From positions 390,001-422,000 of the forward strand of contig NZ_CP045921.1 in assembly GCF_025273655.1 (NCBI RefSeq): a stretch of DNA of 32,000 nt, read 5' to 3'. The notes below the pieces were generated by a model. The model was not told the DNA's origin and did not search any database. It saw only the letters and a program-made list of their open reading frames with translations. Below, piece by piece: positions 6,539 to 31,721 of the stretch (the stretch's first letter is position 1; each line of letters starts with the position of its first letter). This DNA is from Candidatus Saccharimonadota bacterium. GTDB lineage: Bacteria > Patescibacteriota > Saccharimonadia > Saccharimonadales > Saccharimonadaceae. A program made the translations under genes and the position numbers.

Positions 6539-6671
6539 AACTATGCTCCAGTATAGCGCATATGCCTCATGGCCGTAGACGAAAATAGCAAAAAATTATA
6601 CAATATAAATAATCGCATCGTGCGATAGTGCGAGTATATATTCGCACCTCCTCTTGAGGAAGGAACCTGTT

Positions 6672-6896: not shown

Positions 6897-6912
6897 ACCT
6901 TCCCTAGGGGCG

Positions 6913-6973: not shown

Positions 6974-7098
6974 ACTCACTCTGACTCTCCAGTTAATTGA
7001 TCAAATATATCATATATGGTATTATATAATTTACGCATATGTTCATAACATGAATGTGTGTAGACAGTGTAGGGATCAAGCCGCTCGAAGGAGCACTG

Positions 7099-7545: not shown

Positions 7546-7793
7546 TTTCTCGGTTGGTATGTAACCCCGGGGTGTGAAGCTTCAGCGCTCGGGCTCTTCC
7601 TTGCACTGTCGCTTTACCAAAGATTTCAATCGTGTTGAAGTTTTTGGTGAAGGACTATTTTAAACCTTTATTCATACAGTATAAGTATTCTGGATTGGAT
7701 AATTCGTGTGGGCAGACACTCGGACTGTTGTATAGAACACGCCGAGTGTGGTTAAATAACCATAAGTAACTCTGGCGAGGAGAGTGGAGAAAA

Positions 7794-9083: not shown

Positions 9084-9774
9084 AAAACCGCGTCCAGCAC
9101 CACGCTATGAACATACTCGCCCATCGGTATCTATCTGGATGCGTCTACGCGGGTGGCTGGCTGCTCGTGCCGACCGTGCCAGTGTGCGACGACGGTTTCT
9201 CAGCGATCATGGTGCTACGCGGGCACGTGATTTTGACAGACAGACTATCGCGGGCGAGAAATATCTCCTTAAGACACAGTTTCTTGAGCACCTGGCCGAT
9301 GTGCGCGACCATCACGTTTTACGAGAAGCCAAACGAGCGCGTAGTGTACAGGCAAGGCTGTCAGGACTCGAGGGCGAAGCGCGCGGCGTGCTGGAGCGCG
9401 AGCAAGCTCAGCTACTGGAAGCCAAACATGAGTACACCGACATCAAATCTCGCCTTGCTCGTGACGACCTCACGGCACTAGAAAAAGCTAACTACCAGGG
9501 TAAGCTCGGTCAGATCGAAGGATCTGTGAAGCAGCAGCTCGGTGTGGTTGCAAAAGCCGAGGATAAGCTGGCCGATATCACTGCAGCACAGGCCGACAGT
9601 CGCAAAGAATTTGCCGAATTTGCTCAAGCGGCGCACAATATCTACGAGATGTCCATGAACGCCTACGTCAAAGTTGCTGGTCGCCGTCTCAATAGACTTG
9701 GTTGTACCAATTATGATGCTGAATTACGTGATTTTACCAGTGAAACTACCCAAAAAATAAAGGAGCTCTCGTAA
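9076..9774 (+). CDS. Coiled-coil hypothetical protein
   Basis: Track ORF starts at 8965 inside the OmpA-like gene. GTG 9076 is preceded by GGAGGA (9066-9071) and overlaps the OmpA stop by 8 nt. Start is uncertain. E/A/K/Q-rich heptad-like sequence. Confidence 0.5.
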   Translation: MAKKPRPAPRYEHTRPSVSIWMRLRGWLAARADRASVRRRFLSDHGATRARDFDRQTIAGEKYLLKTQFLEHLADVRDHHVLREAKRARSVQARLSGLEGEARGVLEREQAQLLEAKHEYTDIKSRLARDDLTALEKANYQGKLGQIEGSVKQQLGVVAKAEDKLADITAAQADSRKEFAEFAQAAHNIYEMSMNAYVKVAGRRLNRLGCTNYDAELRDFTSETTQKIKELS

Positions 9775-11078: not shown

Positions 11079-11084
11079 CGTAGT

Positions 11085-11546
11085 ATGCGTGATCGGTTGG
11101 ATCAAATCTGGTCGCAGCTGAGTTACTATGTGGACGAAGTGGCAATTCGGGTCGGACTGGCCCGGGATGATCCGGCTGTTGATCTGCGGATGCGTGGTAT
11201 TGCTGCTATTGCAGTATGTATCTTTATGGCGGTTTGCGGTGGTTGGTGGTACACCACGCATGTGCTCGTGACGTGGCAGCCGGAATCGACACGTACGTCC
11301 GAGACGGCGCCGATACCCGTTTCGTCCAGCGGACCTCACGCCAATGAACCCTTGTCTAATTCCGTGCCATCATCTGAGGCATCTGATACGCCTGAATGCG
11401 ATCCCGATTATTCACCGTGTGTGCCAGTAGTCTCGGGTGATCTCAACTGTGCGGATATAGGGCAAACTGTACGCATAGTCGGCACGGATCATTATCATCT
11501 CGACAATGACTCGGATGGCTATGGATGTGATTCATATAGTAATTAA
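11085..11546 (+). CDS. Excalibur calcium-binding domain protein with one TM segment
   Basis: C-terminal CADIGQTVRIVGTDHYHLDNDSDGYGCDS resembles the Excalibur DxDxDGxxC motif. TM segment IAAIAVCIFMAVCGGWWY. Confidence 0.6.
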   Translation: MRDRLDQIWSQLSYYVDEVAIRVGLARDDPAVDLRMRGIAAIAVCIFMAVCGGWWYTTHVLVTWQPESTRTSETAPIPVSSSGPHANEPLSNSVPSSEASDTPECDPDYSPCVPVVSGDLNCADIGQTVRIVGTDHYHLDNDSDGYGCDSYSN

Positions 11547-12169
11547 ACAATAAGCTCTGCAAGTTCTTGTCGAGTAAGATTGGCACCGAATGCTGGGTGT
11601 CCTGGCTCAAGTGTGCGACCCGCGGCTAGGTTGCCGATAGGTAGCGGATCGAAACCAAGCGTGTCGATAAACTGCGCGACGGTCTCAATATCTTCTTTGT
11701 GATCACCTGCGATGGCAATGGCTTTGCGAGTTGGCATATTTTGCGCTGCAGCTTCGTCATGCAGGTGATGGTAGCCCATGTGATTGAGCGCCTTGACGAC
11801 ATGGGATGCAGGCAAAAATCCCTGAATAGCTTGGCTCGATGATTGTTCGTCTGGCAAAATGTTCTCGCGTGGTCCATCGACTTCCCACCAGTAATTCGTG
11901 GCATCAATGACGAGTTTGCCTGTAAGTGCATTGGCAGGCAAAGAACGAAACTTGCCAAGAGGAATTGCCAGAATCACGATGTCAGATTGCGCTGCGTTTC
12001 TAGCAGTGACTGCCTGTGCACCAGGGGTAAGCGTATCAATAGCAAGCGCTATTTTGCCCGGGCTACCCGATCCGGCGACGAGTACTTCGTAATCGGCTTT
12101 TGTTGCTAGCTGGGCCAATGTAATGCCAAGTTTGCCCGCGCCAATGATACCGACAGTGCGTATTGCCAC
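11543..12169 (-). CDS. NADP-binding oxidoreductase of the NADPH-dependent F420 reductase (NpdG-like) family
   Basis: GTG start 12169. Rossmann motif VGIIGAGKLG. Overall similarity to the F420-dependent NADP oxidoreductase family is by recall only. Confidence 0.65.
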   Translation of the reverse strand: MAIRTVGIIGAGKLGITLAQLATKADYEVLVAGSGSPGKIALAIDTLTPGAQAVTARNAAQSDIVILAIPLGKFRSLPANALTGKLVIDATNYWWEVDGPRENILPDEQSSSQAIQGFLPASHVVKALNHMGYHHLHDEAAAQNMPTRKAIAIAGDHKEDIETVAQFIDTLGFDPLPIGNLAAGRTLEPGHPAFGANLTRQELAELIV

Positions 12170-12171
12170 TG

Positions 12172-13224
12172 CTACTTCCCTGCCAAGAGTTCACGTACAC
12201 GTGGTATTACTTTTTTACCATATAGTTCGATCATGTGACGGCGATCGCTCGCTTTCATGGGGCCAAATCCGTACACGAGATCGAATCGCTCTACATCGAC
12301 GGCTTTCATAGCTTTAGCGATCTTCCGTGCCACCGTTTCTGGCGAACCGACGTACATGGAGCCGCCCTTCACTTCGTTCATGAAGTGCTGGCGTGTCATG
12401 GGCTGCCAGCCACGCGTGGCGCCTACTTTATCCATCTGCTCTTTGAATAGTGGAAAGCTAATTTCTATAGCCTGCTCGTCGGTATCAGCGATAAAACCTG
12501 GCGAGTGCATGCCGACCGGATGCGCGTTGTGGCCAAACTGGGCGGCCGCCTTGCGGTAGAGTTCTACGTAGGGGGCGAAACGCTCCGGCGAACCGCCGAT
12601 GATCGCGAGGACAAGTGGCAAATCATACGCTGCTGCACGTACGACTGAGTTGGGTGAGCCGCCTACACCGACACGGACGTCGAGTCGGCCTTTGTCTGTC
12701 TTCGGGAATACATCGGCGGCGTCGAGTGACTGAGTAAACGTGCCGTCCCATGTGACAGGCTTCTCGTCGAGCAACTTGCTAAAGAGCTCGATCTTCTCCT
12801 CGAACAGTCCTTCGTAATCGCGCAGATCGTAACCGAAGAGTGGAAACGACTCGGTAAAAGAACCACGCCCTAGTATGACCTGCGCCCTACCATCAGATAC
12901 CGCATCAAGCGTGGCGAAGCGCTCGTACACGCGCACGGGGTCGTCGCTGCTGAGGACAGTGACGCCAGACGCGAGCGTGATTTTCTTGGTCTTGCTAGCT
13001 ATGGCAGCGAGTACCATTTCGGGGCTTGAGATGGCAAATTCATCGCGGTGGTGTTCGCCGAGCCCGATGACGTCGACGCCGAGTTTGTCGGCGAGTACGG
13101 CTTCGTCGACCACTAAACGAATCGAGGCGGCGTGACTCATGAGTTTACCTTTGCTATCTGTGGCGAGGTCGCCAAACGAATCAAGGCCAAATTGGTAGTG
13201 TGGTATTGCAGATTTTTTGGTCAT
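12172..13224 (-). CDS. LLM-class (luciferase-like) flavin-dependent oxidoreductase
   Basis: FGLDSFGD...VIGLGEHH... pattern typical of the LLM family. Start moved to ATG 13224 (GGGAGA SD upstream) so it does not overlap arsR. Confidence 0.8.
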   Translation of the reverse strand: MTKKSAIPHYQFGLDSFGDLATDSKGKLMSHAASIRLVVDEAVLADKLGVDVIGLGEHHRDEFAISSPEMVLAAIASKTKKITLASGVTVLSSDDPVRVYERFATLDAVSDGRAQVILGRGSFTESFPLFGYDLRDYEGLFEEKIELFSKLLDEKPVTWDGTFTQSLDAADVFPKTDKGRLDVRVGVGGSPNSVVRAAAYDLPLVLAIIGGSPERFAPYVELYRKAAAQFGHNAHPVGMHSPGFIADTDEQAIEISFPLFKEQMDKVGATRGWQPMTRQHFMNEVKGGSMYVGSPETVARKIAKAMKAVDVERFDLVYGFGPMKASDRRHMIELYGKKVIPRVRELLAGK

Positions 13225-15253: not shown

Positions 15254-15262
15254 AGTATAGCA
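15254..15262 (-). promoter_or_regulatory. Extended -10 TGCTATACT, 6 nt upstream of the acyltransferase ATG (leaderless)
   Basis: The complement of 15254-15262 reads TGCTATACT. The ATG is at 15247. Confidence 0.5.
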
Positions 15263-19483: not shown

Positions 19484-19790
19484 ATTTGCACTCCTGACTC
19501 TTCTCTGTGTGGAAAAGGGCTAAATTTGATTTAGCGAACGGATTTTGGAGTGATCCAGCGGTGGATAGGAGTAGTTGACCGCTCTAGTTGCCTACTCTTT
19601 TTACCACGTTGGAGGTGTGAAGACGTCTGTCGAGACGCCGGTCGTGCTAGCTTGTAGGTGAAAAGGCGTTCCCACCAGTACCTCCATAGCTATAGCTAGT
19701 ATAGCGCGTCGACTCGCTGAGACGTCAAGCTATAGGTATTGTGAAATACGGCTTGTGTTTTAAGCAAAGCTCGCCTATGCTAGAGGTATT

Positions 19791-20413: not shown

Positions 20414-20525
20414 GATTAGTATCCTTTCTTTTGTATCAGTGTGGCACGCAGTGTTGAAAGGAAGCTTGGAATACAGGCCTGCACACTAGCTTGGGTTCCT
20501 GTGTCACACAGACTGCATTAGAGTA

Positions 20526-20554
20526 TTGACATAATAAACTATTTATGCTATATT
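20526..20554 (+). promoter_or_regulatory. Near-consensus promoter TTGACA-N17-(TGC)TATATT for the 116-aa ORF
   Basis: TTGACA 20526-20531, 17-nt spacer ending in TGC (extended -10), TATATT 20549-20554. Confidence 0.6.
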
Positions 20555-20611
20555 ATATATGCTCTACTAGCAGTACCTCATATCCATGACATATTCGTCC
20601 GAAAGGCGACC

Positions 20612-20962
20612 ATGACCAATAGCACTGTCACCGACTCGATCGACATCATTCACGATGGTGAGCTGATCGAGAAGGGTCAACACATGATCACCCAGGTGAC
20701 TCGCGTCACCCGACAGATGATCGTGGAGTACCCGGCCCAGGTGAAGTTCGTCTCGAACCTCAGATTCGGCAGCACGATGCATGTATCACCTCCCACCTAC
20801 ACCTCCTTCTCGCAGTACAAGGAGACCAGCGTGGAGGTGGACGTGTACGACATGTACACACATGCAGTGGTCGTCTCCGATGTTGTGACAATCGGCATGC
20901 ACGCCGGTATGCGGCTGCACAGCCGTGTTGTCACCGAGGTGTACTACATCTCATGTGAGTAG
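20612..20962 (+). CDS. Hypothetical protein (116 aa), elevated GC
   Basis: GAAAGG SD (20601-20606). Own promoter and two downstream hairpins. Hand count of 20701-20760 gives 36 G+C of 60. No family recognised. Confidence 0.5.
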   Translation: MTNSTVTDSIDIIHDGELIEKGQHMITQVTRVTRQMIVEYPAQVKFVSNLRFGSTMHVSPPTYTSFSQYKETSVEVDVYDMYTHAVVVSDVVTIGMHAGMRLHSRVVTEVYYISCE

Positions 20963-20975
20963 CAGGTAGAGCGCG

Positions 20976-21009
20976 CGTCGATCCAGTTCATCTTCGGATT
21001 GGATCGACG
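20976..21009 (+). terminator. Strong hairpin directly after the 116-aa ORF (no U-tract)
   Basis: CGTCGATCCA (20976-20985) pairs with TGGATCGACG (21000-21009). Confidence 0.4.
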
Positions 21010-21038
21010 TAAGCTCGATATTAGTTATTTTCTTTCCT

Positions 21039-21069
21039 ACCTTGCAGCGCAAGGTATTTTTAATTTTTC
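21039..21069 (+). terminator. Intrinsic terminator: short hairpin plus T-rich tail
   Basis: ACCTTGC (21039-21045) pairs with GCAAGGT (21049-21055), followed by ATTTTTAATTTTT. Confidence 0.5.
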
Positions 21070-21149
21070 GGTCTATCTCTTTTGATCATCCTGGAATGTG
21101 TCAGACATGAGCTGTATGTCGGATTCATATCATGTGTCTAGGCTCTGGG

Positions 21150-21177
21150 TTGCAACTCTCGCTCGTAATCGTATACT
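21150..21177 (+). promoter_or_regulatory. Candidate promoter TTGCAA-N16-TATACT for the Gam-like gene
   Basis: TTGCAA 21150-21155, TATACT 21172-21177, about 40 nt upstream of GTG 21217. Confidence 0.45.
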
Positions 21178-21216
21178 GTTAGGTGTGCTCTTACTACAAC
21201 TATAGGAGGTGGTGGC

Positions 21217-21780
21217 GTGACCAACGCCGACCCAGCAGTGATTGCAAGTATCAACGGTCTCGTCGAAAGCCGGTTTCAGTTGGAAATCGAGCGAGAGGCC
21301 GAAAACCAGCGCTTTCAGACGGCAATAGCAGCTCTGACGCGCGAACACCAAGAGAAGCTCAACAGGTTTGCTGAGCGTGAGCGTGAGCTCGATCCTGATA
21401 TCTGGCGGTCTATTGATCACAACCGCTCTACACTGATCGTGCGAGGTAAGCGTTCTTTTGTCACTATTAGGGCAAAGTTCCAACTTCGCGAAGTGCCAGC
21501 CAAGCTTGAGGTGCTCGACAAAGTGAGTATCATGGAAGCTGCGCATCGCCTGGGTGTGGTGAAGCAAATCGCCAATCCACCAAAAGGTGGTTGGAGGTTC
21601 AACCAAAAGAAGTTCCTCGCCTGGTTGGCTAGTAGCGGCGATCTGTATCGACACTTCGAGCCATTCGTCGAACAGACAGACAAGACCGAGTCGCTGACCA
21701 TCCAGCCCAACACCAATTACACGGTGGAGCATGACAGTCAGCGCATCTCGCCGCCGTCTATCACTATCCAAAAGAGCTAG
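21217..21780 (+). CDS. Mu Gam-like (Ku-like) host-nuclease inhibitor family protein (tentative)
   Basis: GTG start with AGGAGG SD (21205-21210). The N-terminal coiled coil followed by HNRSTLIVRGKRSFVTIRAKFQLREVPAKLEVLDKVSIMEAAHRLGVVKQI...NQKKF aligns by eye with Mu Gam ANRDELTNGGKVKTANLVTGDVSWRVRPPSVSIRGMDAVMETLERLGLQRFI...INKEA. Confidence 0.5.
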   Translation: MTNADPAVIASINGLVESRFQLEIEREAENQRFQTAIAALTREHQEKLNRFAERERELDPDIWRSIDHNRSTLIVRGKRSFVTIRAKFQLREVPAKLEVLDKVSIMEAAHRLGVVKQIANPPKGGWRFNQKKFLAWLASSGDLYRHFEPFVEQTDKTESLTIQPNTNYTVEHDSQRISPPSITIQKS

Positions 21781-21833
21781 CCCCGCGCTACTCTCTGCCT
21801 TATCACTGGCAGGGTCTCGTTCGCGGGGCTTTG
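21779..21833 (+). terminator. Terminator-like hairpin after the Gam-like gene
   Basis: AGCCCCGCG (21779-21787) pairs with CGCGGGGCT (21822-21830), with an inner CTGCC/GGCAG helix, followed by TTT. Confidence 0.4.
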
Positions 21834-21865
21834 TCATACCTTAGCCACCCGATGCCTAATGATAG

Positions 21866-21894
21866 TTGACAAAAGTTTTCAATAGTTATAATAT
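21866..21894 (+). promoter_or_regulatory. Promoter TTGACA-N17-TAATAT (or N15-TATAAT) for the 143-aa ORF
   Basis: TTGACA 21866-21871, TATAAT 21887-21892 / TAATAT 21889-21894. The 5' UTR contains hairpin CTACGCC/GGCGTAG (21921-21937) and AGGAG SD (21951-21955). Confidence 0.55.
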
Positions 21895-21960
21895 ACACTT
21901 GTTGTCTCACCGAGGCGACTCTACGCCTTTGGCGTAGGAAGGAACGAGCTAGGAGCAGCA

Positions 21961-22392
21961 ATGCCCAAGATCGACGCCGCCGCACCCGTGGCACCCACGA
22001 AGGAAACCGTCAAGACCCCGCTCGACATCGCTGTCGACAAGGTCGTCGCCGAATCCGACTGCACGCCGGCCGAGGCCAAGACCATGATCACCGACTGGCT
22101 CACGCCGATCGTCGAGCGTTCGCGCATGACCGGCGGCACGGCCTACCCGTCCGACAGCGAGATGTTCGTCGGCGGCTACGGCTCCACCGAGAACACGCGT
22201 TCGTACGCGATCCTCGATCAGGTGATGCCCCACGGAGAGGCGTCGACCCCGGGCTCCGCGCACGAGGCCATCGAGAAGGTCGTACTCGACCCCAGTCGGG
22301 ACGAGTACGGACTCATCCACGATCAGACCGGTGACACGCAGCGCCACTGCACCGTCACCACCATGATCGGGACGGTCTCCGGCCTGAGCTGA
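21961..22392 (+). CDS. Acidic hypothetical protein (143 aa), strongly elevated GC
   Basis: Own promoter, SD and terminators. Hand count of 22021-22080 gives 40 G+C of 60. About 21 D/E versus about 11 K/R by hand count. No family recognised. Confidence 0.55.
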   Translation: MPKIDAAAPVAPTKETVKTPLDIAVDKVVAESDCTPAEAKTMITDWLTPIVERSRMTGGTAYPSDSEMFVGGYGSTENTRSYAILDQVMPHGEASTPGSAHEAIEKVVLDPSRDEYGLIHDQTGDTQRHCTVTTMIGTVSGLS

Positions 22393-22408
22393 TCGGCTCC
22401 TTCCAACC

Positions 22409-22443
22409 CCTGCGTGGTGGCTCACCTAGAGCCACCACGCAGG
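22409..22443 (+). terminator. 15-bp perfect hairpin after the 143-aa ORF
   Basis: CCTGCGTGGTGGCTC (22409-22423) pairs with GAGCCACCACGCAGG (22429-22443), with a 5-nt loop. Confidence 0.45.
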
Positions 22444-22468
22444 TGGAAGAACATTTGCTTCAAATCTT

Positions 22469-22495
22469 CCGTCGATTAGACGGCTTTTATTTTTG
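22469..22495 (+). terminator. Canonical intrinsic terminator
   Basis: CCGTC (22469-22473) pairs with GACGG (22479-22483), followed by CTTTTATTTTTG. Confidence 0.6.
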
Positions 22496-22606
22496 TCATT
22501 TGTAAAATGTACGATCTAGATAGTCTTTTGTCGGGCCGCGGCGGCTTACTGGCTCACAAAGACGTTCATCGGGAGAGCATGATGCCTGCTGTCTATGGTA
22601 TGATGT

Positions 22607-23101
22607 TCAGCTGCTATCTCTTTTCATTCTGTGCCACAGTCTCGGAATTACCTCGAAGCAAACCGTCACCAATATGATGAACAACACCATCCTCAGATCC
22701 CAATTATATTTATCTAGTACAAGGGCAACGATGATAAGCGACAAAAGTATTACGCCCATCGCCATATCCCAGCCTTCACGACTATACACCCAGCCAAATC
22801 GTACTATATAGTCTTCGGTGTTGGTCAAATCACCACCGCGTACGTTGTTGAGACCCTTTTCTTTCATGAGCTGGCGTGTGATTGTGTTCTCATACGTTTC
22901 CGCATGCTCTTTACTCACAATGCCTAGATCTTCAAACTTTTCAATTTCAATCGGCTTGTGCACCTTTGTCCAGTAGGCACCACGAATACCGAGTTGGTGC
23001 TCGCGAAAACGTGCCTCTGGCGTTTTCGATGTGATACCTACGTACCACTTTTCATTCTCAAGCTTGAGGATGTAAAGCCACCAACGTTTCTCAGACATCA
23101 T
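22607..23101 (-). CDS. GIY-YIG nuclease domain protein with two C-terminal TM helices
   Basis: WWLYILKLENEKWYVGITSKTPEARFREHQ...YENTITRQLM...NNVRGG fits the GIY...YIG...R...E...N pattern. C-terminal MAMGVILLSLIIVALVL and MVLFIILVTVCFEVI are hydrophobic helices. ATG-ATG at 23101/23098 overlaps the hsdR stop. The track's GTG 23113 is an alternative start. Confidence 0.7.
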   Translation of the reverse strand: MMSEKRWWLYILKLENEKWYVGITSKTPEARFREHQLGIRGAYWTKVHKPIEIEKFEDLGIVSKEHAETYENTITRQLMKEKGLNNVRGGDLTNTEDYIVRFGWVYSREGWDMAMGVILLSLIIVALVLDKYNWDLRMVLFIILVTVCFEVIPRLWHRMKRDSS

Positions 23102-25952
23102 CGACAAACACACGTATAAACTTGGTGAACTTGTCTGCTATGCGCTCGATCACACTGCTACGCTCCCGTATGCCAGGCGTTTGCGTTAGTGTGCGCACAT
23201 AGTCGTCTTGCCTAGGTTTGCGTCCACTATACGAATAGTCCGCGATGAGCTTTTCTAGTCGTTCGGTGTCTAGCCCTTCTTCACTGGCAAGTTGCTCGAT
23301 CGCCCTCTTCTCTTCGGCGCTCCAATACTTCTGAAACTCAACGTCTACTTGCTCGCTGTCGGTGATGTCGGGGAGCCAGCCGCTTATGAACTTCTCGATC
23401 AGTTCACGTTTGCTACGGAGTTTTTCGTCGCCGCTCATCAGGTCATCGATCTGTTTGTGCAGCTTGGCTTTTTCGGTGTCGTCGGCATCGACGTACCTTG
23501 CAAGCAGGCGTAGTATGTAGTCGACATTTATCTCGTCGCGACGCACGAGCTCTAGCTCGAAATCTACTTCGTTGAGTATCGAATCTTTCTCCGCGTTGTC
23601 ACCTTTGGTCTCAAAATATAGGTCGAGATATTTGCTTTTGTAATCCTCGAATTGCTGTGCAGTCATAGCCGTGTCGTCGTAGCCGAAATCGGCAAAGCTT
23701 AGCAGTACATTGCGCGTACGCATGACTTCGCGAAACAGCTCTACGAAATGTCGCTTGGCTTCCTCGCCTACAAGCATATCTACGTCACCTAGGCTCGGTG
23801 TATATGCTAGGAGTGCTGTCACTTGGGCGTCAAACTCGTCCACGTACGTTTCGTACGATTTGAGGAATATCGTTTCGCTGGCGTCTTTGTCGCTAAACAA
23901 GCGCACAGCTTCGTCTGTTCGCTTCTTGAGATTGCGAAACACAACGATATTACCCTGTGATTTGACTTCGTTCAGTATGCGATTGGTGCGGCTATAGGCT
24001 TGTAGTAGTCCGTGGTAGCGTAGGTTCTTGTCAACGTAGAGTGTGTTGAGTGTCTTGCTGTCGAAGCCTGTCAGGAACATATTAACCACCAGTAGGATAT
24101 CGATTTCGCGTGACTTCACACGTTTGGCGATGTCTTTGTAGTAGTTGTAAAAGCTTTTGCTATCACGTGTTGTGTAATTGGTGCCAAACATAGTGTTGTA
24201 GTCGCCCATGGCACGTTCGAGTACGTCGCGCGAGTGTTCGTTTATCTGGGCGCTGCCTGCCATGTCGATATCAACTTCGTCGATCATGCCGTCGGCATCT
24301 TTGTCTTCTTCGTTGGCTTGGTAGCTGAAGATCGTCGCGATTTTGAGATTGTGACTACGCGCAGCAAACGCATCGTAGTATTTGCGTAGTACATCCGTCG
24401 AACCTACGCACATCATGGCGGTGAAATCGCGGTTATGCGTCTTGTAGTCGTGATTCGTGATGATATAGTCAGTGATTTTATCTACCCGTGCGTCGCCTTC
24501 CATAGCTTCGCGCGTATCGATAGCTTCTACGTCTATGTCGATATTTGTCTTGCTATCTTCGCGTTGTTTGAACCGCCCTACGTATTCCACGCTAAACTTC
24601 AGTACATTGCCGTCGTTGATTGCATCGGTAATGACATATTCGTGCAGGCACGCGCCGAACAAATCCGCCGTAGTGCGTTTGCCGAAGCGTGAATTAAAAG
24701 TCGCGTTCTCTGCTTTAATTGGTGTACCGGTGAAGCCAAACATCTGGTAATTTGTGAAGTATTCGGTGATATTGCGATGTGTCTCGCCGAACTGAGAGCG
24801 GTGGCACTCGTCGAAGATGAAGACGATTTTGTTGTCACGTACGGATTCCATTGCGCTGGCATGGCGCTCCCGTTTGATGGCATTGTCGAGCTTCTGTATG
24901 GTCGTGACGATGAGCTTGGTGTCGGGGTCGCTGAGCTGCTTCACGAGTGCTTGCGTATTATCGGTGCCGTCGACACTCCCCTCTTTGAAACTGTTGAACT
25001 CTTTGATCGTCTGGTAATCGAGGTCGTTGCGGTCGACGACGAACAGCACTTTGTCTACCGCCGGGTTTTCTGTCATGATCTGCGCCGCCTTGAAGCTGGT
25101 GAGCGTCTTGCCGCTACCCGTAGTGTGCCATATATAGCCGCCAGTGTTTGATCCGCTGTCGACCTTTTCGATGATGCGCTCTACTGCGTAGTATTGATAT
25201 GGGCGCAACACCATCAATACTTTGTCGGTTTCGTTGAGTACGATGTATTTGGTAATCATGCGCGAGACGTGGCATTTCTCCAGGAAATCACGAGCGAATT
25301 CGTCGATCTGACTGATACGCTTGTTTGCTTTATCCGTCCAGTAAAACGTCTGTTTGAAACTCGCCTTTTTGGTGCCGCCGTAACTCACGCTATTGGCATA
25401 GTATTTTGTGTCGACGCCGTTGCTAATGACGAAAAGCTGTACGTATTGGAATAGGCCGTTTGCGCTGGCGTAACTGTGGCGGCGATAGCGATTTATCTGG
25501 TTGAACGCTTCTTTGAGCTCGATACCACGGCGTTTGAGCTCGATTTGCACCAGTGGTAAGCCGTTAATCAGTAGCGTCACATCGTAGCGAGTGCTATACT
25601 CGCCGTCATTTACAATCTGTTGCGCCACTTGGTACTCGTTGTGGCACCATTTGGCCATGTTAATGAATTCTATATAGGCGCTAGTGCCGTCATCGCGCAC
25701 GAGGTGCATTTTGTCGCGCAGTAGCTTGGCGCGGTCAAACACGTTGCCTTTGTCTAGGTGGTTTACGACGCGTTTAAACTCCGCGTCGCTCAGTGGTGTA
25801 TCACCAAGCTTCTCGGCGTTGTGCTTTTCTAACTGGCACTTGAGGTTCGCGAGCAACTCGTCGTTGTCTGCGATGATGACGCGCTCATACCCCTGCTCCA
25901 CGAGTTGGGCTACAAGGTTGTTCTCGAGGGTTTGTTCAGATTGGGTTGTCAT
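23091..25952 (-). CDS. hsdR: Type I restriction enzyme R subunit (HsdR)
   Basis: N-terminal SEQTLENNLVAQLVEQGYERV, Walker A HTTGSGKT, DEAH-box FIFDECHRSQ, and helicase motifs throughout. Start set at ATG 25952 (MTTQSEQ...); the track's 26033 adds 27 aa that overlap the upstream ORF. Confidence 0.95.
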   Translation of the reverse strand: MTTQSEQTLENNLVAQLVEQGYERVIIADNDELLANLKCQLEKHNAEKLGDTPLSDAEFKRVVNHLDKGNVFDRAKLLRDKMHLVRDDGTSAYIEFINMAKWCHNEYQVAQQIVNDGEYSTRYDVTLLINGLPLVQIELKRRGIELKEAFNQINRYRRHSYASANGLFQYVQLFVISNGVDTKYYANSVSYGGTKKASFKQTFYWTDKANKRISQIDEFARDFLEKCHVSRMITKYIVLNETDKVLMVLRPYQYYAVERIIEKVDSGSNTGGYIWHTTGSGKTLTSFKAAQIMTENPAVDKVLFVVDRNDLDYQTIKEFNSFKEGSVDGTDNTQALVKQLSDPDTKLIVTTIQKLDNAIKRERHASAMESVRDNKIVFIFDECHRSQFGETHRNITEYFTNYQMFGFTGTPIKAENATFNSRFGKRTTADLFGACLHEYVITDAINDGNVLKFSVEYVGRFKQREDSKTNIDIDVEAIDTREAMEGDARVDKITDYIITNHDYKTHNRDFTAMMCVGSTDVLRKYYDAFAARSHNLKIATIFSYQANEEDKDADGMIDEVDIDMAGSAQINEHSRDVLERAMGDYNTMFGTNYTTRDSKSFYNYYKDIAKRVKSREIDILLVVNMFLTGFDSKTLNTLYVDKNLRYHGLLQAYSRTNRILNEVKSQGNIVVFRNLKKRTDEAVRLFSDKDASETIFLKSYETYVDEFDAQVTALLAYTPSLGDVDMLVGEEAKRHFVELFREVMRTRNVLLSFADFGYDDTAMTAQQFEDYKSKYLDLYFETKGDNAEKDSILNEVDFELELVRRDEINVDYILRLLARYVDADDTEKAKLHKQIDDLMSGDEKLRSKRELIEKFISGWLPDITDSEQVDVEFQKYWSAEEKRAIEQLASEEGLDTERLEKLIADYSYSGRKPRQDDYVRTLTQTPGIRERSSVIERIADKFTKFIRVFVDDV

Positions 25953-25957
25953 TGTTT

Positions 25958-26599
25958 TTATTTTATTCCAATAATCTTCTTCAATTTTGATCCTATGCTT
26001 GTGATGCTTATTCTCTGAAGATCCTCGAGACATTTTTCAGCATCATTTTTGTGTTTCACTGGAGTATATCCAAAATCGCCTTGTCGACTCATATAAAGCT
26101 TATCGAATATATCTAGCTTCTGATTATAGTTTTCGAGAACAGCCTCGGCATTTTCGGAGCCCGATTCGTCAATAGTGTTTTTCGTTATATCTGCAATCGC
26201 ACGCTGTTTATTGATTCGTATTTGTGCAACATCCTCACCGAAAGACTTATTGTTTTCCGTAATAGCTTCATCAAGTAACCTAGCGGTCTGATAGAAGTCC
26301 GTAACCGTCTCCCATTCGTCTTTGTCGAAGTCTGCGGAAAACATATGACTATATTTCGACCATGCATCCTCGCGTAATATGTTAAAGTTTAGGTTACTGA
26401 GACCGCCTTGACGCACGGCATCTTTTACCTTAGGAATGCACCTTTCGATATGCTGTATCTCTAAATAAATAGAGTTTGCAGCCGCTCTTTTGCTGTCTTT
26501 CTTTTGACGCGTATAGATATAGAGAGCAACCAGGCCTGCTATAAGGGTAACGACCGTTTGCAGAAAATTTGAATTTAAGAGTTCCCAGGCAGCTTCCAT
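25958..26599 (-). CDS. Hypothetical protein with a single N-terminal TM helix (213 aa)
   Basis: TM helix FLQTVVTLIAGLVALYIYT followed by a charged helical domain. Its ATG 26599 directly abuts the upstream TAG (26602..26600). Its stop lies 5 nt before the hsdR ATG. AT-rich (22 G+C of 60 in 26041-26100). Confidence 0.6.
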   Translation of the reverse strand: MEAAWELLNSNFLQTVVTLIAGLVALYIYTRQKKDSKRAAANSIYLEIQHIERCIPKVKDAVRQGGLSNLNFNILREDAWSKYSHMFSADFDKDEWETVTDFYQTARLLDEAITENNKSFGEDVAQIRINKQRAIADITKNTIDESGSENAEAVLENYNQKLDIFDKLYMSRQGDFGYTPVKHKNDAEKCLEDLQRISITSIGSKLKKIIGIK

Positions 26600-26902
26600 C
26601 TACTTAGCCTCTTTACTTCCTAATTCCGACAGCTTGTCAATCGTTTTAATATCAAGCTTATTAAGTACGTCTAGCATTGCAGACATAGATTCCACTTCAT
26701 CCTTGCTTGGTATCTTGCTGCTCTCTAGTGACCGTATCTTTTCTTGTTGTGCCTCGATCGTTACATATGCACGTTCTAATAGATCGCGCATTTTTTGTAT
26801 CTTTTTATCGCTATCACCTTCGCTAAAATCGACAGTTGTCTTCAATGAGCCAAGTAGCTCACTGATATTACCCGCATTATTGAGATTGTCATAATCGCTC
26901 AT
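26600..26902 (-). CDS. Small coiled-coil hypothetical protein (100 aa)
   Basis: AAGGA SD upstream of ATG 26902. Heptad-like E/K/L-rich sequence. Starts 16 nt after the hsdS stop. Confidence 0.55.
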   Translation of the reverse strand: MSDYDNLNNAGNISELLGSLKTTVDFSEGDSDKKIQKMRDLLERAYVTIEAQQEKIRSLESSKIPSKDEVESMSAMLDVLNKLDIKTIDKLSELGSKEAK

Positions 26903-26918
26903 TTCTATATTTTTCCTT

Positions 26919-28127
26919 TCATATAAACATCCTCTGCAAAAGTCCCTTCTTCCACTGCTTGGCGGCGGTGAGGCGGGTTTGTTCTGCTGCTATTTTATCA
27001 TCGAGCGCGATGAGGAGGGCGGCGATTTTTTGTTGTTCCTCTTTTGATTTTGGCAAAGTAAGCTCAATATTGAAAAAATCTGAAACGCCGATATTTAGCA
27101 GACCGTGATTTCTTGCGCCCTCTTGGGCTACTTTTTCAATTTCAGAATCTTGAAGCCCATATACGAAAACTTGCTCGAAAAAGTCATTATCATTTGAATC
27201 TTTTGCTCTAAAACAGATATATAAGGTCGATACGATTCCCTTGGTGTACAGGTTTAATTTTTTGATTGCACCCATCGGATATCCGGCTGAATAGCTTTTG
27301 TTGTATGCAAAGTCTCCCATGGTAAGCATGAAATAGTTTGTTACATTCTTTGCGGCAACAATCTTACTAAAGAAATCGGTCTGACTTATAAGTCCCTGCT
27401 GTGCAGAAATGGTAAGTACATTTTGATTGTTTTCTTTATTTTTGTCTGTAACTCGATCAAATAGATCTCCGAGTCGCTTTTTCTCCCACTCAGGATATGG
27501 ATTTCCGTTTTCGTCCCTGAAGCGAATAGCCTGGGTGAAGATTTTTTGCATGACACCTTTTTTATACTTCTGTAGCAGCTCAAGCTTTTTCTCGCCCGCC
27601 GCAATCCGCTCATCGACGAGTGTCAAAAATTCGGCAATTTTTTCCTGCTCTGGTTTTGAAGGGACGCTAAGTTTGGTTTTTTGAAACTCACCCTTACTAA
27701 TAATTGGAACAGCTTGCTCTCCGGCAAGCAAAGATATTCTTCTAGATAAGCGGCTCAATGCCAAATAAACAAAGTCGTCGTCAACATTATTATCATCTCC
27801 AATCACGGAATTGATTTGCTGATTGGTTGTGCACTCTATCGTAGCCTGGGCTGTTTTCCCAATCGTTGATCCTATACATACAAACAAAGTGCTACCTACT
27901 GGTATAGGTCTAGATTTTTCAAAGCCTTTCTGCGATAATTTTGTTCTTGTATTTGTTACATATCGTCCACTATTCATGTCAGCGGGGCTAATAAATAAAA
28001 ATTCATCACCGTACAGGCTCATATCTGCGGTACTCGGAGTGCTACCGGTAACTACTCGAGCAATATCGCCAAGCTTCTTTAACTGCCATTTATCAGTAAA
28101 CGCTGGAAAACGAAGTTGAGGAGTCAC
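26919..28127 (-). CDS. hsdS: Type I restriction-modification S subunit (HsdS), two target recognition domains
   Basis: LRFPAFTDKWQLKKLGDIARVVTGSTPS at the N-terminus. Two conserved spacer repeats, EQEKIAEFLTLVDERIAAGEKKLELLQKYKKGVMQKIF and EEQQKIAALLIALDDKIAAEQTRLTAAKQWKKGLLQRMF. GTG start 28127. Confidence 0.9.
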   Translation of the reverse strand: MTPQLRFPAFTDKWQLKKLGDIARVVTGSTPSTADMSLYGDEFLFISPADMNSGRYVTNTRTKLSQKGFEKSRPIPVGSTLFVCIGSTIGKTAQATIECTTNQQINSVIGDDNNVDDDFVYLALSRLSRRISLLAGEQAVPIISKGEFQKTKLSVPSKPEQEKIAEFLTLVDERIAAGEKKLELLQKYKKGVMQKIFTQAIRFRDENGNPYPEWEKKRLGDLFDRVTDKNKENNQNVLTISAQQGLISQTDFFSKIVAAKNVTNYFMLTMGDFAYNKSYSAGYPMGAIKKLNLYTKGIVSTLYICFRAKDSNDNDFFEQVFVYGLQDSEIEKVAQEGARNHGLLNIGVSDFFNIELTLPKSKEEQQKIAALLIALDDKIAAEQTRLTAAKQWKKGLLQRMFI

Positions 28128-28939
28128 TTCTGCGCCTCTTGAGCGAGTTTACTGTACCTCTTCTCGTTCTTCATCCAATTACTTCGATGTTTAATAGACT
28201 GCTTCGACTGCGTTAGCCTCCAAGAATCTTTGACCGGCTCATAACCCAGCGCAGCTAACAACTTGACTGCGTACTCTTCGTTCAGCGCAAGGCGCTTTTT
28301 GACCTCCGAAAGTCTCCACTCGCCCTTCTCGTCTAAAAATTCTCTCAACTGATACGGATAGCGTACTCCATTTTTCTCCTTCCAATTATGAACCAATTTT
28401 CTGAGACCTCTATAACGCCTGAATTGCCACACTCTAATCATCCCCCGGTAGCCTAGCATTCCGAGAGAAAGGCTGCTGTCTAGGAAGCCAATCAAGTCAA
28501 ACGTATCGCCTCCAAGTGCACCAAGACCGTCGGGAACTCTTACATAGACGTGATATGCACTACCTTTTACATATCCATCTTCAACAAGTTCACTAACTTC
28601 ACGAAAAGTCCAATCATAAGATAGAGGCATGTAGCCATCGAGAATTTTAATGCCCCCATCTAAATTGAGTCCGTATTTTATTCCGAAAGTTGAATGCCCG
28701 TCACTACCATGTTTTGACTCGGAGCTAAAGGGTACAAGTGAGAGATGTAGAGGAGTTGCTTCATTAATACTTTCGTAGCCCATTTTTTTCTCAGCAACCT
28801 CTTTTGTGCTTTGAATCTTCCGAAGAGCAAGCACGCGTATCGAGTCGCTGTCTTTCACGCTTTCTTCGAAGTCATACTTAATGATACGCCCAAGATTGTC
28901 CGTATCAGTGAGTCTCAACGATATTATAGCTTTTGTCAT
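28124..28939 (-). CDS. Hypothetical protein (271 aa) inserted between hsdM and hsdS
   Basis: ATG 28939 lies 4 nt after the hsdM stop. Its TGA overlaps the hsdS GTG (GTGA). No family recognised. The basic C-terminal half may be helical or wHTH-like. Confidence 0.6.
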   Translation of the reverse strand: MTKAIISLRLTDTDNLGRIIKYDFEESVKDSDSIRVLALRKIQSTKEVAEKKMGYESINEATPLHLSLVPFSSESKHGSDGHSTFGIKYGLNLDGGIKILDGYMPLSYDWTFREVSELVEDGYVKGSAYHVYVRVPDGLGALGGDTFDLIGFLDSSLSLGMLGYRGMIRVWQFRRYRGLRKLVHNWKEKNGVRYPYQLREFLDEKGEWRLSEVKKRLALNEEYAVKLLAALGYEPVKDSWRLTQSKQSIKHRSNWMKNEKRYSKLAQEAQK

Positions 28940-28943
28940 AGCA

Positions 28944-30488
28944 CTAAAACGGCGATCTAACGCCGAGCTCCTTGGTGAATTTGGCTATCTGCGCGTCAAG
29001 GTCTGAGGTTTTGGCGTCGACGACTCGCAGCTCTGATACGACAGTATCGAGGTCAATCTCTGCTTCTTCCTCGAATGTATCGACGTAGCGTGGGATGTTG
29101 AGATTATAATCGTTTTCTTTGATTTCCTCTACCGTCGCGACATGGCTGTATTTGTCTTCGCTCTTTCGCGCGGCGTATGTCTCGATAATCTTGTCGATGT
29201 CGCTCGAGCGAAGGCGGTTTTGGTTTTTGCCTTTTTCGAAATGCTTACTGGCGTCGATGAATAGCACGTCGTCTGCTATCTTGCATTTGCGGAACACTAA
29301 TATGCATGCTGGGATGCTGGTGCCGTAGAACAGATTTGCCGGCAGGCCGATGACGGCATCGAGATAGTTGCGCTCTATAAGCGCTTGGCGAATCACACCT
29401 TCTGCCGCGCCGCGAAACAGCACACCGTGTGGCATCACCACTGCCATAGTACCGCTGTCGCTGAGCTGGTAGACCATGTGTGAGATGAACGCGTAGTCTG
29501 CCTTGCTGCTGGGCGCGACCTTGCCCCATGGACTGAAGCGTTCGTCTTGTGCGTTGAGAGGGTCGCTGTCGCCCGCCCATTTGGCGCTAAAGGGTGGATT
29601 GGCGATGACGGCCTCGAACCTGTATTCAGTATGTCGCGGATCTTTGAGCGTATCGTCTTGTTTGATATCGAACCTATCAAAATGCACATCGTGCAAAATC
29701 ATATTCATACGAGCAAGATTGTACGTGGTATTGTTCATCTCTTGACCGAAATATTCGTCCACCTCAGCGTAGCGGCCGATACGCAGTAGTAGCGAACCCG
29801 AGCCACAGGCTGGGTCGTACACGCTTTTGAGCCGCTTCTTGCCATTCGTGACGATACGTGCGAGTACTTGGCTGACTTCTTGCGGCGTGTAGAATTCTCC
29901 AGCCTTTTTGCCTGCGCCGCTAGCGAACTGGCCGATGAGGTATTCGTAGGCGTCGCCGAGGATATCGATCTGGCTGTTGCCGAGCTGGAAATCGATCTTG
30001 TCGAGGTGTTTGAGCACCCTGGCGATCAGTTCAGCACGAGCGTTGACTGTCTTGCCGAGTTTGGTTGCGTTGAGATCAAGTTCCGAGAACAGCTTATCGA
30101 AATCTTCCTCGCTGTCGGTACCCATGGTGCTGCTTTCGATATTGGCGAGGATACGCTGCAAGTCTTCTATGTAATCGTCGAGTTGAGTGCGCTCGGCCAT
30201 CTTGCTGAAAAGCTCGCTCGGAAGCAGAAAATAGCCGAGATGATCAAGCGCGGCTTTGCGCACTTCGTCGATAATCTCGAAATCGGTGTCTGGCACGTCT
30301 TTGTATACGATATCCTCACTTGCAAGCAAGTCGGTATCTGCGTAGAGCTCCAGCTTTTCGGAGAGGTATTTGTAAAAGATGAAACCAAGAATGTAGTCAC
30401 GAAACTCATCGGCGTCCATCTTACCGCGGAGCTCGTTGGCAATGTTCCAGAGTGATGTTTGGAGTTGTTTTTTCTGATCTTCGGACAC
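28944..30488 (-). CDS. hsdM: Type I restriction-modification M subunit (HsdM, N6-adenine DNA methyltransferase)
   Basis: HsdM N-terminal LWNIANELRGKMDADEFRDYILGFIFYKYLSE, SAM motif VYDPACGSGSLL, and catalytic IANPPFS. GTG start 30488 with GAGAGGGA SD. Confidence 0.95.
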   Translation of the reverse strand: MSEDQKKQLQTSLWNIANELRGKMDADEFRDYILGFIFYKYLSEKLELYADTDLLASEDIVYKDVPDTDFEIIDEVRKAALDHLGYFLLPSELFSKMAERTQLDDYIEDLQRILANIESSTMGTDSEEDFDKLFSELDLNATKLGKTVNARAELIARVLKHLDKIDFQLGNSQIDILGDAYEYLIGQFASGAGKKAGEFYTPQEVSQVLARIVTNGKKRLKSVYDPACGSGSLLLRIGRYAEVDEYFGQEMNNTTYNLARMNMILHDVHFDRFDIKQDDTLKDPRHTEYRFEAVIANPPFSAKWAGDSDPLNAQDERFSPWGKVAPSSKADYAFISHMVYQLSDSGTMAVVMPHGVLFRGAAEGVIRQALIERNYLDAVIGLPANLFYGTSIPACILVFRKCKIADDVLFIDASKHFEKGKNQNRLRSSDIDKIIETYAARKSEDKYSHVATVEEIKENDYNLNIPRYVDTFEEEAEIDLDTVVSELRVVDAKTSDLDAQIAKFTKELGVRSPF

Positions 30489-30518
30489 TGACGGTTCCCT
30501 CTCTTTTGTACTAGCTTA

Positions 30519-30527
30519 ATTATAGCG
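30519..30527 (-). promoter_or_regulatory. Candidate -10 (CGCTATAAT) for the hsd operon
   Basis: Complement of 30519-30527 reads CGCTATAAT, about 30 nt upstream of GTG 30488. The -35 is weak (TGGCAA). It lies in the 84-nt gap after the 260-aa gene. Confidence 0.45.
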
Positions 30528-30572
30528 AGGTACTTGAGATTTTGCCAGTGAAGAGATTTTCACCCGTGAGAA

Positions 30573-31355
30573 CTACACGTCCATCCCGATATTGCGCATG
30601 GCGTGCTTCATGCTACGTAGCGTGAAGTATGCAAGGTCGAGATGGCGTTGTTCGGGTGAGAACTCACGATCAAACATTGCACGAGCTGCAGTATCGTCTG
30701 TAGATTCTAGCTGTTCGAGGTGTAGAGCTGCATCAGCGCGAAATTGCAGCGGCGTGGGTAGATTGAAAAAATCCATATTAATGTGATCGGAATCGTCATT
30801 TAGATCTGCGATAGTGATTGCGGTTGCTTCATCTTCGTCGTCTTGTGGCATGTTGGTGCATGTGGCAACAATCTCGTTGCCGCCCATGTCGAGATATTTC
30901 GCATTTTGACATACATGGAGCTTCTCGTCTTCGGTATCAATATGCACTTCTACTGATTGGATGGCATTGACAGGTTCGGCTTGTTCGAGCGGGTTTGTAT
31001 ACGCACCGTAGACATACCGGGCTAGGTGTTCGGGCAATGCTACGTTGTCTAGTGCGCTAGTGGCGCAGAAGTTGTAAGTGACCATGGAGAAATCTGCACT
31101 TGGATACTCGCGAGTTGCCATAAAACCGTATTGTGTCGTGAGTGCGCTTGATAGCATTGAAGATTCACCGCGTTGGCGTAAATAGCTGTCTTCTCGAACT
31201 GGATCGGTATGAGTGAGCTCGACGGACCACTCACCGACTTTACGCTCACGAAATCCACGGTGGACTCGTGCAAGTCGATTGAGTTCTAAGAGCAGCGCGT
31301 CTGTAGTGTAGTTGGCGCGGCCGGCGGCGATGCGTTCATGAATAGATGGCTTCAT
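30573..31355 (-). CDS. Acidic hypothetical protein (260 aa)
   Basis: Long ORF with no family recognised. GAGAG lies 5 nt upstream of ATG 31355. Confidence 0.6.
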   Translation of the reverse strand: MKPSIHERIAAGRANYTTDALLLELNRLARVHRGFRERKVGEWSVELTHTDPVREDSYLRQRGESSMLSSALTTQYGFMATREYPSADFSMVTYNFCATSALDNVALPEHLARYVYGAYTNPLEQAEPVNAIQSVEVHIDTEDEKLHVCQNAKYLDMGGNEIVATCTNMPQDDEDEATAITIADLNDDSDHINMDFFNLPTPLQFRADAALHLEQLESTDDTAARAMFDREFSPEQRHLDLAYFTLRSMKHAMRNIGMDV

Positions 31356-31403
31356 AGTGCTCTCAATGTACTACGGCAAAGGTAGAAAGAAAAGCATAAG
31401 GGG

Positions 31404-31565
31404 GCAAAAGCCCGGCCTCGCTTTGCTCGTAGATTCACCAAGAATAACACCCGTCGCGGGGATGAGTGTTATTCTCGGTGACTTACCGGTCCAGCGCAAG
31501 ATGGTATAGCTATTCTAGCTTTACCATCGACTAACTATTGTCAAATCAAAGATTATGACAATAGT
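31404..31565. other. Cluster of stable hairpins in an ORF-free spacer (possible structured RNA; strand undetermined)
   Basis: Four helices are visible. First, 31404-31411/31420-31426. Second, 31436-31450/31466-31480, which is 15 bp with 1 mismatch. Third, 31501-31506/31522-31527 with an inner 31508-31512/31516-31520. Fourth, 31534-31543/31556-31565, which is 10 bp. Confidence 0.25.
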
Positions 31566-31604: not shown

Positions 31605-31648
31605 CATAGAAAAAGCCCCAGACATGAATGCCTGAGGCTTTTTCTATG
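31605..31648 (-). terminator. Hairpin terminator immediately after tRNA-Glu (potentially bidirectional)
   Basis: CATAGAAAAAGCC (31605-31617) pairs with GGCTTTTTCTATG (31636-31648). T5 follows the GC core on both strands. Confidence 0.6.
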
Positions 31649-31721
31649 GTGACCTTACCGGGAATCGAACCCGGATTGCCAGGATGAGAACCTGATGTCC
31701 TAACCGTTAGACGATAAGGCC
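31647..31721 (-). tRNA. tRNA-Glu (anticodon CUC), CCA encoded
   Basis: Reverse complement GGCCTTATCGTCTAACGGTTAGGACATCAGGTTCTCATCCTGGCAATCCGGGTTCGATTCCCGGTAAGGTCACCA folds by hand into a cloverleaf. Acceptor GGCCTTA/TAAGGTC. 3-bp D stem GTC/GAC, typical of tRNA-Glu. Anticodon stem TCAGG/CCTGG with loop TTCTCAT. T arm CCGGG-TTCGATT-CCCGG. Confidence 0.9.

Follow-up and report, generated by a model that had tools for sequence, protein, structure and literature searches.

Adjacent single-gene units of a probable saccharibacterial accessory pool in Candidatus Mycosynbacter amalyticus, one bearing signs of recent exchange

Introduction

Phage morons, which are reportedly independent promoter-gene-terminator units of lambdoid and other phages, are the closest known concept for three small neighboring genes, here ORF1, ORF2 and ORF3, that lie between positions 20612 and 22392 of a 32,000-nucleotide stretch of a Candidatus Saccharimonadota chromosome (contig NZ_CP045921.1, positions 390,001 to 422,000 of the forward strand; hereafter, the window). 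The likeness consists of one small open reading frame (ORF) per unit, an own sigma-70-type promoter, a factor-independent terminator, a deviant base composition and an occurrence in several contexts. Differences are the residence on a chromosome of the candidate phyla radiation (CPR) with no detectable prophage around, an anomaly that affects codon third positions only and extends through the whole family at saturated divergence, and conserved leader and 3′ RNA hairpins. Integron gene cassettes are alike in being compact single-gene modules with a terminal structured inverted repeat that form variable same-strand arrays.

An earlier note on this DNA had taken the three genes for compositionally foreign cassettes, horizontally acquired, possibly from a high-GC donor or its phage, and domesticated next to a defence locus. 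We instead read them, with a probability of roughly two in three, as three adjacent autonomous single-gene units of a saccharibacterial accessory pool, of which the ORF3 unit would be mobile and whose high third-position GC would be held by a fixation bias.

Results and discussion

In PMC11880426, Candidatus Mycosynbacter amalyticus is described as a saccharibacterium (CPR/Patescibacteria) and a parasite of the actinobacterium Gordonia amarae. The ORF1 protein is identical to its hypothetical protein GII36_02260, and ORF2 and ORF3 are GII36_02265 and GII36_02270. ORF1 (20612–20962, plus strand, QHN42671.1) encodes 116 amino acids with a GC content of 0.55 and a third-codon-position GC (GC3) of 0.786. 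ORF2 (21217–21780, plus strand, QHN42672.1) encodes 187 amino acids from a GTG start after AGGAGGTG, at GC 0.53 and GC3 0.622; ORF3 (21961–22392, plus strand, QHN42673.1) encodes 143 amino acids, at GC 0.66 and GC3 0.896. Lengths and strand agree with the earlier note, and its hand counts of GC (36/60, 33/60 and 40/60) proved exact on recounting. Relative to a reference set of the 35 other genes of the window (GC3 mean 0.528, standard deviation (sd) 0.076, maximum 0.640), the GC3 z-scores are +3.4 for ORF1, +1.2 for ORF2 and +4.8 for ORF3. ORF1 and ORF3 are thus clear outliers and ORF2 is not, and the description as compositionally foreign therefore fits the first and the third gene, the second only marginally. 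The small genes of the window, as a class, showed no GC3 richness. The excess reflects a uniform depletion of A- and T-ending codons; at ORF3 third positions, C accounts for 0.57, G for 0.33 and A and T for 0.05 each.

Horizontal transfer is supported for ORF3 at least. By blastn, the whole cassette (634 bp, 21866–22499, plus strand) is the unit common to unrelated genomic contexts, and it is the only DNA that the window shares with two other such contexts. One context comprises loci L027–L030, among them a 1.59-Mb scaffold, with GDSL lipases, ribonucleotide reductase and glucose-6-phosphate dehydrogenase (G6PD) as neighbors; these match the window over 637 bp at 89.2% nucleotide identity, a stretch that opens with the first base of the −35 box and closes where the terminator T-run ends, and the flanks on both sides are unalignable (42–43% identity here, 42–51% across contexts). 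The other comprises L031–L034, one of them a 370-kb scaffold, which share 21881–22452 at 92.9% nucleotide identity and then continue into a different terminator. The gene is accompanied in these contexts by its AT-rich promoter, leader and 3′ hairpin. The ORF3 proteins of L031 and the window are 97% identical, with a synonymous divergence per site (dS) of 0.039, compared with 55% protein identity, a proportion of synonymous differences (pS) of 0.79 and saturated dS for the DUF2130 genes of this genome pair, which we treat as orthologues.

A second line of evidence comes from strain L005, which over 12 kb has 99.2% identity to the window and a background divergence of ~0.3%. Divergence climbs to 2.7–4.7% across 21300–22600, a segment that covers ORF2 and ORF3 and adjoins the junction of a restriction-modification (R-M) island, and the ORF3 allele of the window is nearer to that of L031 than to that of its own strain L005 (dS 0.082). 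Near-identity in unrelated contexts, together with an L005 allele that is more distant than the L031 allele, indicates that ORF3 has recently been exchanged horizontally, both between lineages and between alleles, the unit being a promoter-to-terminator cassette of ~0.6 kb. The part of the earlier note that proposed horizontal acquisition hence stands for ORF3; the high-GC source attached to it is not supported. Among close ORF3 alleles, the ratio of nonsynonymous to synonymous divergence (dN/dS) is 0.26–0.48.

Where the GC richness originates can be judged from the gene families. ORF3 relatives with 34–63% protein identity were found in six further backgrounds, three of which are labeled Saccharibacteria metagenome-assembled genomes (MAGs): the soil MAG L008 (overall locus GC 45%), the metagenomic contigs L011 (51%) and L026 (55%), UBA2018 (L019, 50%), Saccharibacteria GW2011_GWC2_48_9 (L020, 47.5%) and a LARS22 scaffold (L028, 48%). 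All these relatives have GC ~0.65 and GC3 0.81–0.92, next to neighbors with GC3 of ~0.35–0.63. Between backgrounds, the ORF3 pS plateaus at 0.4–0.5, which we read as saturation when third positions are limited to C or G. GC3 is 0.79–0.84 throughout the ORF1 family, and 0.62–0.73 in all five ORF2 loci examined, the relatives by themselves spanning 0.64–0.73, modestly raised relative to backgrounds of 0.40–0.55. Searches of 50,697 phage records, 72,556 plasmids and IMG/VR contigs returned no relatives of the three genes, and every taxonomically labeled relative of the three proteins, large protein collections included, is a saccharibacterium; the donor with high GC, or its phage, that the earlier note had considered was not found in any of them. 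A family-wide high GC3 at saturated divergence and the lack of a detected donor argue that the GC richness is a stable trait rather than a fresh donor signature, and on this comparative evidence it appears to be a lasting property of gene families seen so far in Saccharibacteria only.

Recent acquisition from a high-GC donor, either the Gordonia host or an actinophage, with subsequent fitting of local promoters, is the alternative that survives best, and we consider it rather unlikely. Third positions in the order C > G >> A, T, at GC3 values of 0.79 and 0.90, resemble those of high-GC Actinobacteria. ORF1 is very narrowly distributed, recent third-position changes in ORF3 mostly replace GC by AT, the direction expected of amelioration, and the host, according to PMC11880426, is the actinobacterium Gordonia amarae. 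Besides the failure to find a labeled relative outside Saccharibacteria, three observations speak against such an import: i) ORF3 is GC3-rich in all 7 backgrounds, the window included, at a divergence over which a single import would have ameliorated, ii) an AT-rich promoter, a leader and a 3′ hairpin move with the gene, and iii) a related species keeps ORF1 and ORF2 in synteny.

Third-position changes among four close ORF3 alleles number 13 from GC to AT and 4 from AT to GC, which corresponds, with these small counts, to a per-site equilibrium GC3 of ~0.74. Since recent changes are directed toward AT and yet distant relatives stand at 0.81–0.92, some fixation bias must restore GC. Two candidates for this bias are left, namely selection at synonymous sites, and GC-biased gene conversion acting on a segment with demonstrated recombination.

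Translational selection, in which very highly expressed genes would have accumulated preferred C- or G-ending codons, is another conceivable source of the high GC3. The strong, near-consensus promoters, good ribosome-binding sites at ORF2 and several ORF3 relatives and the predominance of C-ending codons among the enriched classes are what it would predict. For codon adaptation, a GC3 of 0.9 would be extreme where the genome stands at 0.53, and A- and T-ending codons are uniformly depleted family-wide with no specific preferred subset. Furthermore, QHN42671–42673 are absent from the published top-40 protein abundance table of M. amalyticus (bioRxiv 10.64898/2026.03.03.709456), whose 12th entry is a putative pilin, and a type IV pilin gene of a related genome has a GC3 of 0.51. 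Very high expression is an unlikely cause of the elevated GC3.

The anatomy of the units was largely as the earlier note had described it. Consensus scans placed promoter-like sites 60–95 nucleotides (nt) upstream of each start codon, at the three positions named there. The ORF1 site (20526–20554, plus strand) reads TTGACA-N17-TATATT, is TG-extended with 11/12 consensus matches and is near-identical in L021 and L022. The ORF2 site (21150–21177, plus strand) is TTGCAA-N16-TATACT, with 9/12 matches, and is conserved in L021. The ORF3 site (21866–21894, plus strand) can be read as TTGACA-N17-TAATAT (10/12) and also as TTGACA-N15-TATAAT; its −35 box is conserved in three contexts. By number, promoter-like sites are not significant in the 4-kb region, with 5 found and 3.2±1.5 in shuffles. 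Their conservation speaks for them: the ORF1 promoter is near-identical in three species, and in other genomes the part homologous to the ORF3 unit starts with the −35 box. The promoters had also been matched to a local (T/C)GCTATAnT consensus; this motif is indeed enriched in the window (7 sites vs 2.4 expected; 0/100 shuffles reach 7), and only the ORF1 promoter among the three has it. Its copies are at 3615–3623, 6550–6558, 15254–15262, 19698–19706, 20546–20554, 25592–25600 and 30519–30527.

Downstream of the promoters, the putative 5′ untranslated leader of ORF1 (20555–20611, plus strand) contains a GAAAGG ribosome-binding site and is strongly conserved in three species, without significant RNA structure when its folding is compared with shuffles (z = −0.4). 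The leader of ORF3 is predicted by folding to form two hairpins (21901–21938, plus strand). Each stop codon is followed by strong hairpins that fold 3.8–7.8 sd better than shuffled sequence, as had been noted. For ORF1, these are a GC-rich hairpin without a T-run (20969–21016, plus strand), whose stem is kept in L021 and L022 with variable loops, and an intrinsic terminator (21038–21069, plus strand) with an 8-bp stem (21038–21056) and a T-run, conserved in L021; together the two hairpins score z = −6.2. The ORF2 3′ element, a probable terminator (21781–21837, plus strand; z = −3.8 for 21781–21828), consists of a nested hairpin, CCCCGCG...CGCGGGG, then CTTTGTCAT with a short U-tract. Thus, ORF1 and ORF3 end in a hairpin plus T-run, and ORF2 in a strong nested hairpin followed by CUUUGU only. 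Despite a coding dS > 2, the ORF2 element TAGCCCCGC...GCGGGGCTTTGTCAT is near-invariant in five loci. The 9-mer CTTTGTCAT directly after the stem (21829–21837) is invariant in the window, L014, L015, L017 and L021, with coding divergence saturated, and a similar sequence, TTTGTCAT, follows the ORF3 terminator (22491–22498).

The ORF3 unit closes with a family-specific 3′ hairpin (22400–22449, plus strand), in which a core GYGGYGR...YCRCCRC is set within an outer stem CTTCCA/TGGAAG, and with an intrinsic terminator (22469–22499, plus strand) made of a 5-bp stem (22469–22483) and a T-run, in place of which relatives carry a terminator of different sequence. The fold score of the two hairpins is z = −7.8. 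In every genome examined, high GC marks the coding sequence, flanked by an AT-rich promoter 60–90 nt upstream and a GC-rich hairpin past the stop codon. The earlier description as independent single-gene units with their own promoter and terminator is therefore borne out by the same anatomy, a leader included, in relatives from other genomes.

Integron-type gene cassettes, with the 3′ inverted repeats acting as attC sites, would account for small single-gene units in one orientation whose arrays vary between genomes, and for the imperfect inverted repeat at the end of each unit, in which structure is conserved rather than sequence. They are a very unlikely explanation: the window proteins scanned include no integrase domain, no attI site is present, each unit has its own promoter, the stems by eye lack paired RYYYAAC/GTTRRRY core sites (R″/R′), and homology breaks at the −35 box and, in L028, past a second terminator, away from the hairpin. 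That the GC richness is imposed by an overlapping second gene or structured RNA is barely credible; long antisense ORFs cover ORF2 (21130–21837, 235 codons) and ORF3 (21949–22425, 158 codons) and the folding of the ORF1 coding RNA surpasses that of shuffles (z = −3.0), yet we rejected overlapping antisense genes as the cause since the shadow ORFs are not conserved, these codon-aligned frames being broken for ORF2 in two loci (L015 and L017), for ORF3 in L011 and for ORF1 even in the window, and the sense proteins are conserved with confident folds, with no significant structure in the ORF3 coding RNA (z = −1.7).

The 3′ hairpin of ORF3 shows strong covariation. In an alignment of nine sequences, pairing holds in 99.2% of cells, 11/14 pairs are altered on both sides and 0/500 shuffles score as high; in slid registers, pairing collapses to 29–46%. 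In 353 kb searched, the core occurs only after ORF3-family genes. Its loop varies from 5 to 13 nt in length, which favors a single-stranded hairpin over a duplex operator. Close ORF3 alleles carry pairing-preserving double changes in the 3′ stem and in the first leader hairpin, the latter staying paired in L028 and L031, where G-C has given way to A-U by changes in both arms. A search of known RNA families (Rfam) gave a palindrome artefact only, mir-4520 on both strands, far below the gathering score.

What ORF2 encodes is suggested by phrog_491 ("Mu Gam-like end protection"), which the protein matches with E = 2.7e-6 and which 19/20 of its relatives match too. PF07352 finds weak matches in 9/20 relatives (best E = 8e-4), and one relative is annotated as Gam by the Joint Genome Institute (JGI). 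With hhalign, the ORF2 family profile aligned to a sequence taken as Mu Gam with 84.9% probability (E = 6.5e-6), pairing residues 31–120 with Mu Gam 42–132 and leaving ~65 C-terminal residues outside. The AlphaFold2 model (mean predicted local distance difference test score (pLDDT) 91.4) comprises a 68-residue helix and then a beta/alpha domain. Points in common with the Mu Gam and Ku end-binding proteins would be the phrog_491 matches of the family, the hhalign alignment and a long N-terminal helix followed by a beta-rich domain; ORF2 differs in the unaligned C-terminal residues, in PF07352 matches that are weak and limited to relatives and in being a stand-alone chromosomal gene. Its relatives likewise are stand-alone genes in varied neighborhoods, outside any Mu-like prophage, in five separate Saccharibacteria-type backgrounds (metagenomic contigs). 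We hold with moderate confidence that ORF2 is a distant Mu Gam-like protein present across Saccharibacteria, and it is probably a DNA-end-binding protein.

The ORF3 family extends to 107 clusters at 50% identity in an exhaustive profile search (7 close relatives in a word-indexed search), and the members bearing taxonomic labels are all saccharibacteria. A first scan of a genome-contig collection returned no relatives, and a metagenome scan one new locus only. In a 52-sequence alignment, C34, A39, R55, Y82, H91, S99, A100, L109, E115, H120 and C130 are invariant or nearly so, and the ten closest sequences keep H101 as well. The AlphaFold2 model of ORF3 is very confident (pLDDT 94.3), and fold searches found no match for it in PDB (best E 0.72) or BFVD (best E 0.33). 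ORF3 is thus modeled as a small Cys/His protein whose confidently predicted fold has no known relative. An assignment to PF20304 (Sp-CxC) was set aside as too weak for use, with 2/52 relatives matching at E ~0.008. The soil MAG L008 also carries a canonical Ku gene (PF02735, L008 2172–2951), ~7 kb from its ORF3 relative.

ORF1 is a narrowly distributed orphan with 4 relatives only, all at least 73% identical and with GC3 0.82–0.84. It has no match in Pfam, PHROG, PADLOC or NCBIfam; for ORF1 and ORF3, PDB sequence profiles, Pfam and NCBIfam yielded nothing above noise, and hhalign detected no kinship between the two.

Taken together, a model for the locus emerges. Each unit would start with a strong sigma-70-type promoter and a short leader, continue with a small coding sequence whose codons end in G or C and close with a GC-rich post-stop hairpin and a terminator, and it would belong to a family seen so far only in Saccharibacteria rather than to a high-GC import. 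The ORF3 unit at least would pass between Saccharibacteria lineages, and between alleles within species, as a ~0.6-kb segment, presumably by DNA uptake and recombination; Saccharibacteria are naturally competent. High GC3 may represent an equilibrium against AT-biased mutation input, kept by synonymous selection or by GC-biased gene conversion at a recombination hot spot. By analogy with Mu Gam, ORF2 may bind and shield double-stranded DNA ends. ORF3 would be a small cytosolic protein, possibly metal-binding through its conserved Cys and His residues, and the cognate hairpin of its mRNA probably stabilizes or regulates the transcript. The block as a whole would sit at the edge of a variable region in which defence islands come and go.

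Several points weigh against this model. The functions of ORF1 and ORF3 are conjecture. The ORF2 protein of the window has no Pfam match at E <= 0.01, and its model matches neither Ku nor any other PDB fold (Foldseek best E = 0.59), although a monomer with a 68-residue helix is a poor query. Separate transcription of each unit is a prediction from the DNA sequence. Kinship between the genomes with near-identical ORF3 is gauged by one gene, DUF2130, a possible paralogue, and the cassette ends show neither a recombinase nor a target-site duplication nor a terminal repeat. The surplus of GC-to-AT among recent changes would also be expected, in the short term, from an import undergoing amelioration, and an unsequenced high-GC reservoir is a minor possibility.

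A broader proposal, which we offer tentatively and regard as doubtful in its full form, is that Saccharibacteria, perhaps CPR bacteria widely, hold a pool of "chromosomal morons" of ~0.4–0.7 kb that run from promoter to terminator, move between lineages as units and are arrayed by defence islands, with a GC3 of 0.7–0.9 in genomes of 45–51% GC maintained by fixation bias, and with ORF3 as a new fold that has its own RNA hairpin. If this were true, ORF3 might be an autoregulated nucleic-acid-binding factor, or a modulator of restriction and DNA uptake alongside the Gam-like ORF2. Composition-based detection of transfer equates a GC anomaly with a foreign donor, an inference that an intrinsic family GC3 of ~0.9 in mid-GC genomes challenges; in bacteria whose genomes are tiny, such a GC3 needs a mechanism, through either selection at synonymous sites or biased gene conversion. 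The 634-bp unit from −35 box to terminator would make a unit of exchange visible among uncultivated ultrasmall bacteria. M. amalyticus, which grows with Gordonia, offers a cultivable system for the hypotheses of end protection by ORF2, of the ORF3 fold and hairpin role and of an interplay with R-M.

Genomic surroundings and minor observations

Beyond the three genes, ~100 bp past the ORF3 terminator, begins an island of 8.9 kb (22601–31519, minus strand) that by Pfam contains a GIY-YIG gene, a type I R-M system (HsdR, HsdS and HsdM) and four unassigned genes. Strain L005 has ~138 bp of unrelated sequence in place of 22601–31519, keeps all three genes and resumes homology at 31520, beside tRNA-Glu (31647–31721). 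The R-M system is therefore a strain-variable island, and the three genes lie outside it. In the related species L021, a membrane-protein gene, ORF1 and ORF2 follow in this order, with an extra gene between ORF1 and ORF2, on a 6.3-kb contig without the R-M system and without ORF3, the place of which is occupied by other GC3-elevated small genes. The supposed domestication next to a defence locus is not supported: L005 has all three genes, and L021 has ORF1 and ORF2, without the R-M block.

Like the components of defence islands, the block abuts a variable type I R-M island, and ORF3-family genes adjoin R-M genes in 3 of ~8 contexts (the window, L031 and L020). In L031, a convergent cluster after the ORF3 array (6607–12435) contains a LEM-3-like GIY-YIG gene, DUF6994, T5orf172/MUG113, a YgjP-like gene and a 1060-amino-acid HsdR. 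In L020, a complete MmeI-family type IIL R-M enzyme with all five MmeI Pfam domains (5534–8275) lies 156 bp downstream of the ORF3 relative. The units differ from defence islands in that the three proteins match no PADLOC defence model and in that the genes persist where the R-M island is absent. The co-location is real, and may mark a functional link or only common residence in variable regions. As for a phage setting, ten neighboring genes have no PHROG match, and among the three ORFs only ORF2 matches a phage family.

A 131-amino-acid gene of L021 recurs in L031 directly upstream of ORF3 (dS 0.58), where it sits in a plus-strand array of small genes with GC3 0.69–0.73, each with its own hairpin and promoter. 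Further plus-strand small genes of the same GC3 range, with their own post-stop hairpin and AT-rich promoter, are arrayed beside ORF2 and ORF3 relatives (L031 4732–5776; L033 4204–4581; L021 2567–3455; L015 6797–7276 and 8495–9552).

Within the island, the middle (25958–28939) has a GC content of only 0.40–0.44. The 168-amino-acid GIY-YIG protein (22607–23113, minus strand) has a hydrophobic C-terminal part that weakly matches Ac76; its frame and the longest HsdR ORF (23091–26033, minus strand) have 23 nt in common, and gene callers start both further in. Elsewhere in the window, two YGCTATANT copies end 7 and 12 nt before minus-strand start codons (15247 and 6538), a spacing that suggests leaderless or nearly leaderless mRNAs for these genes.

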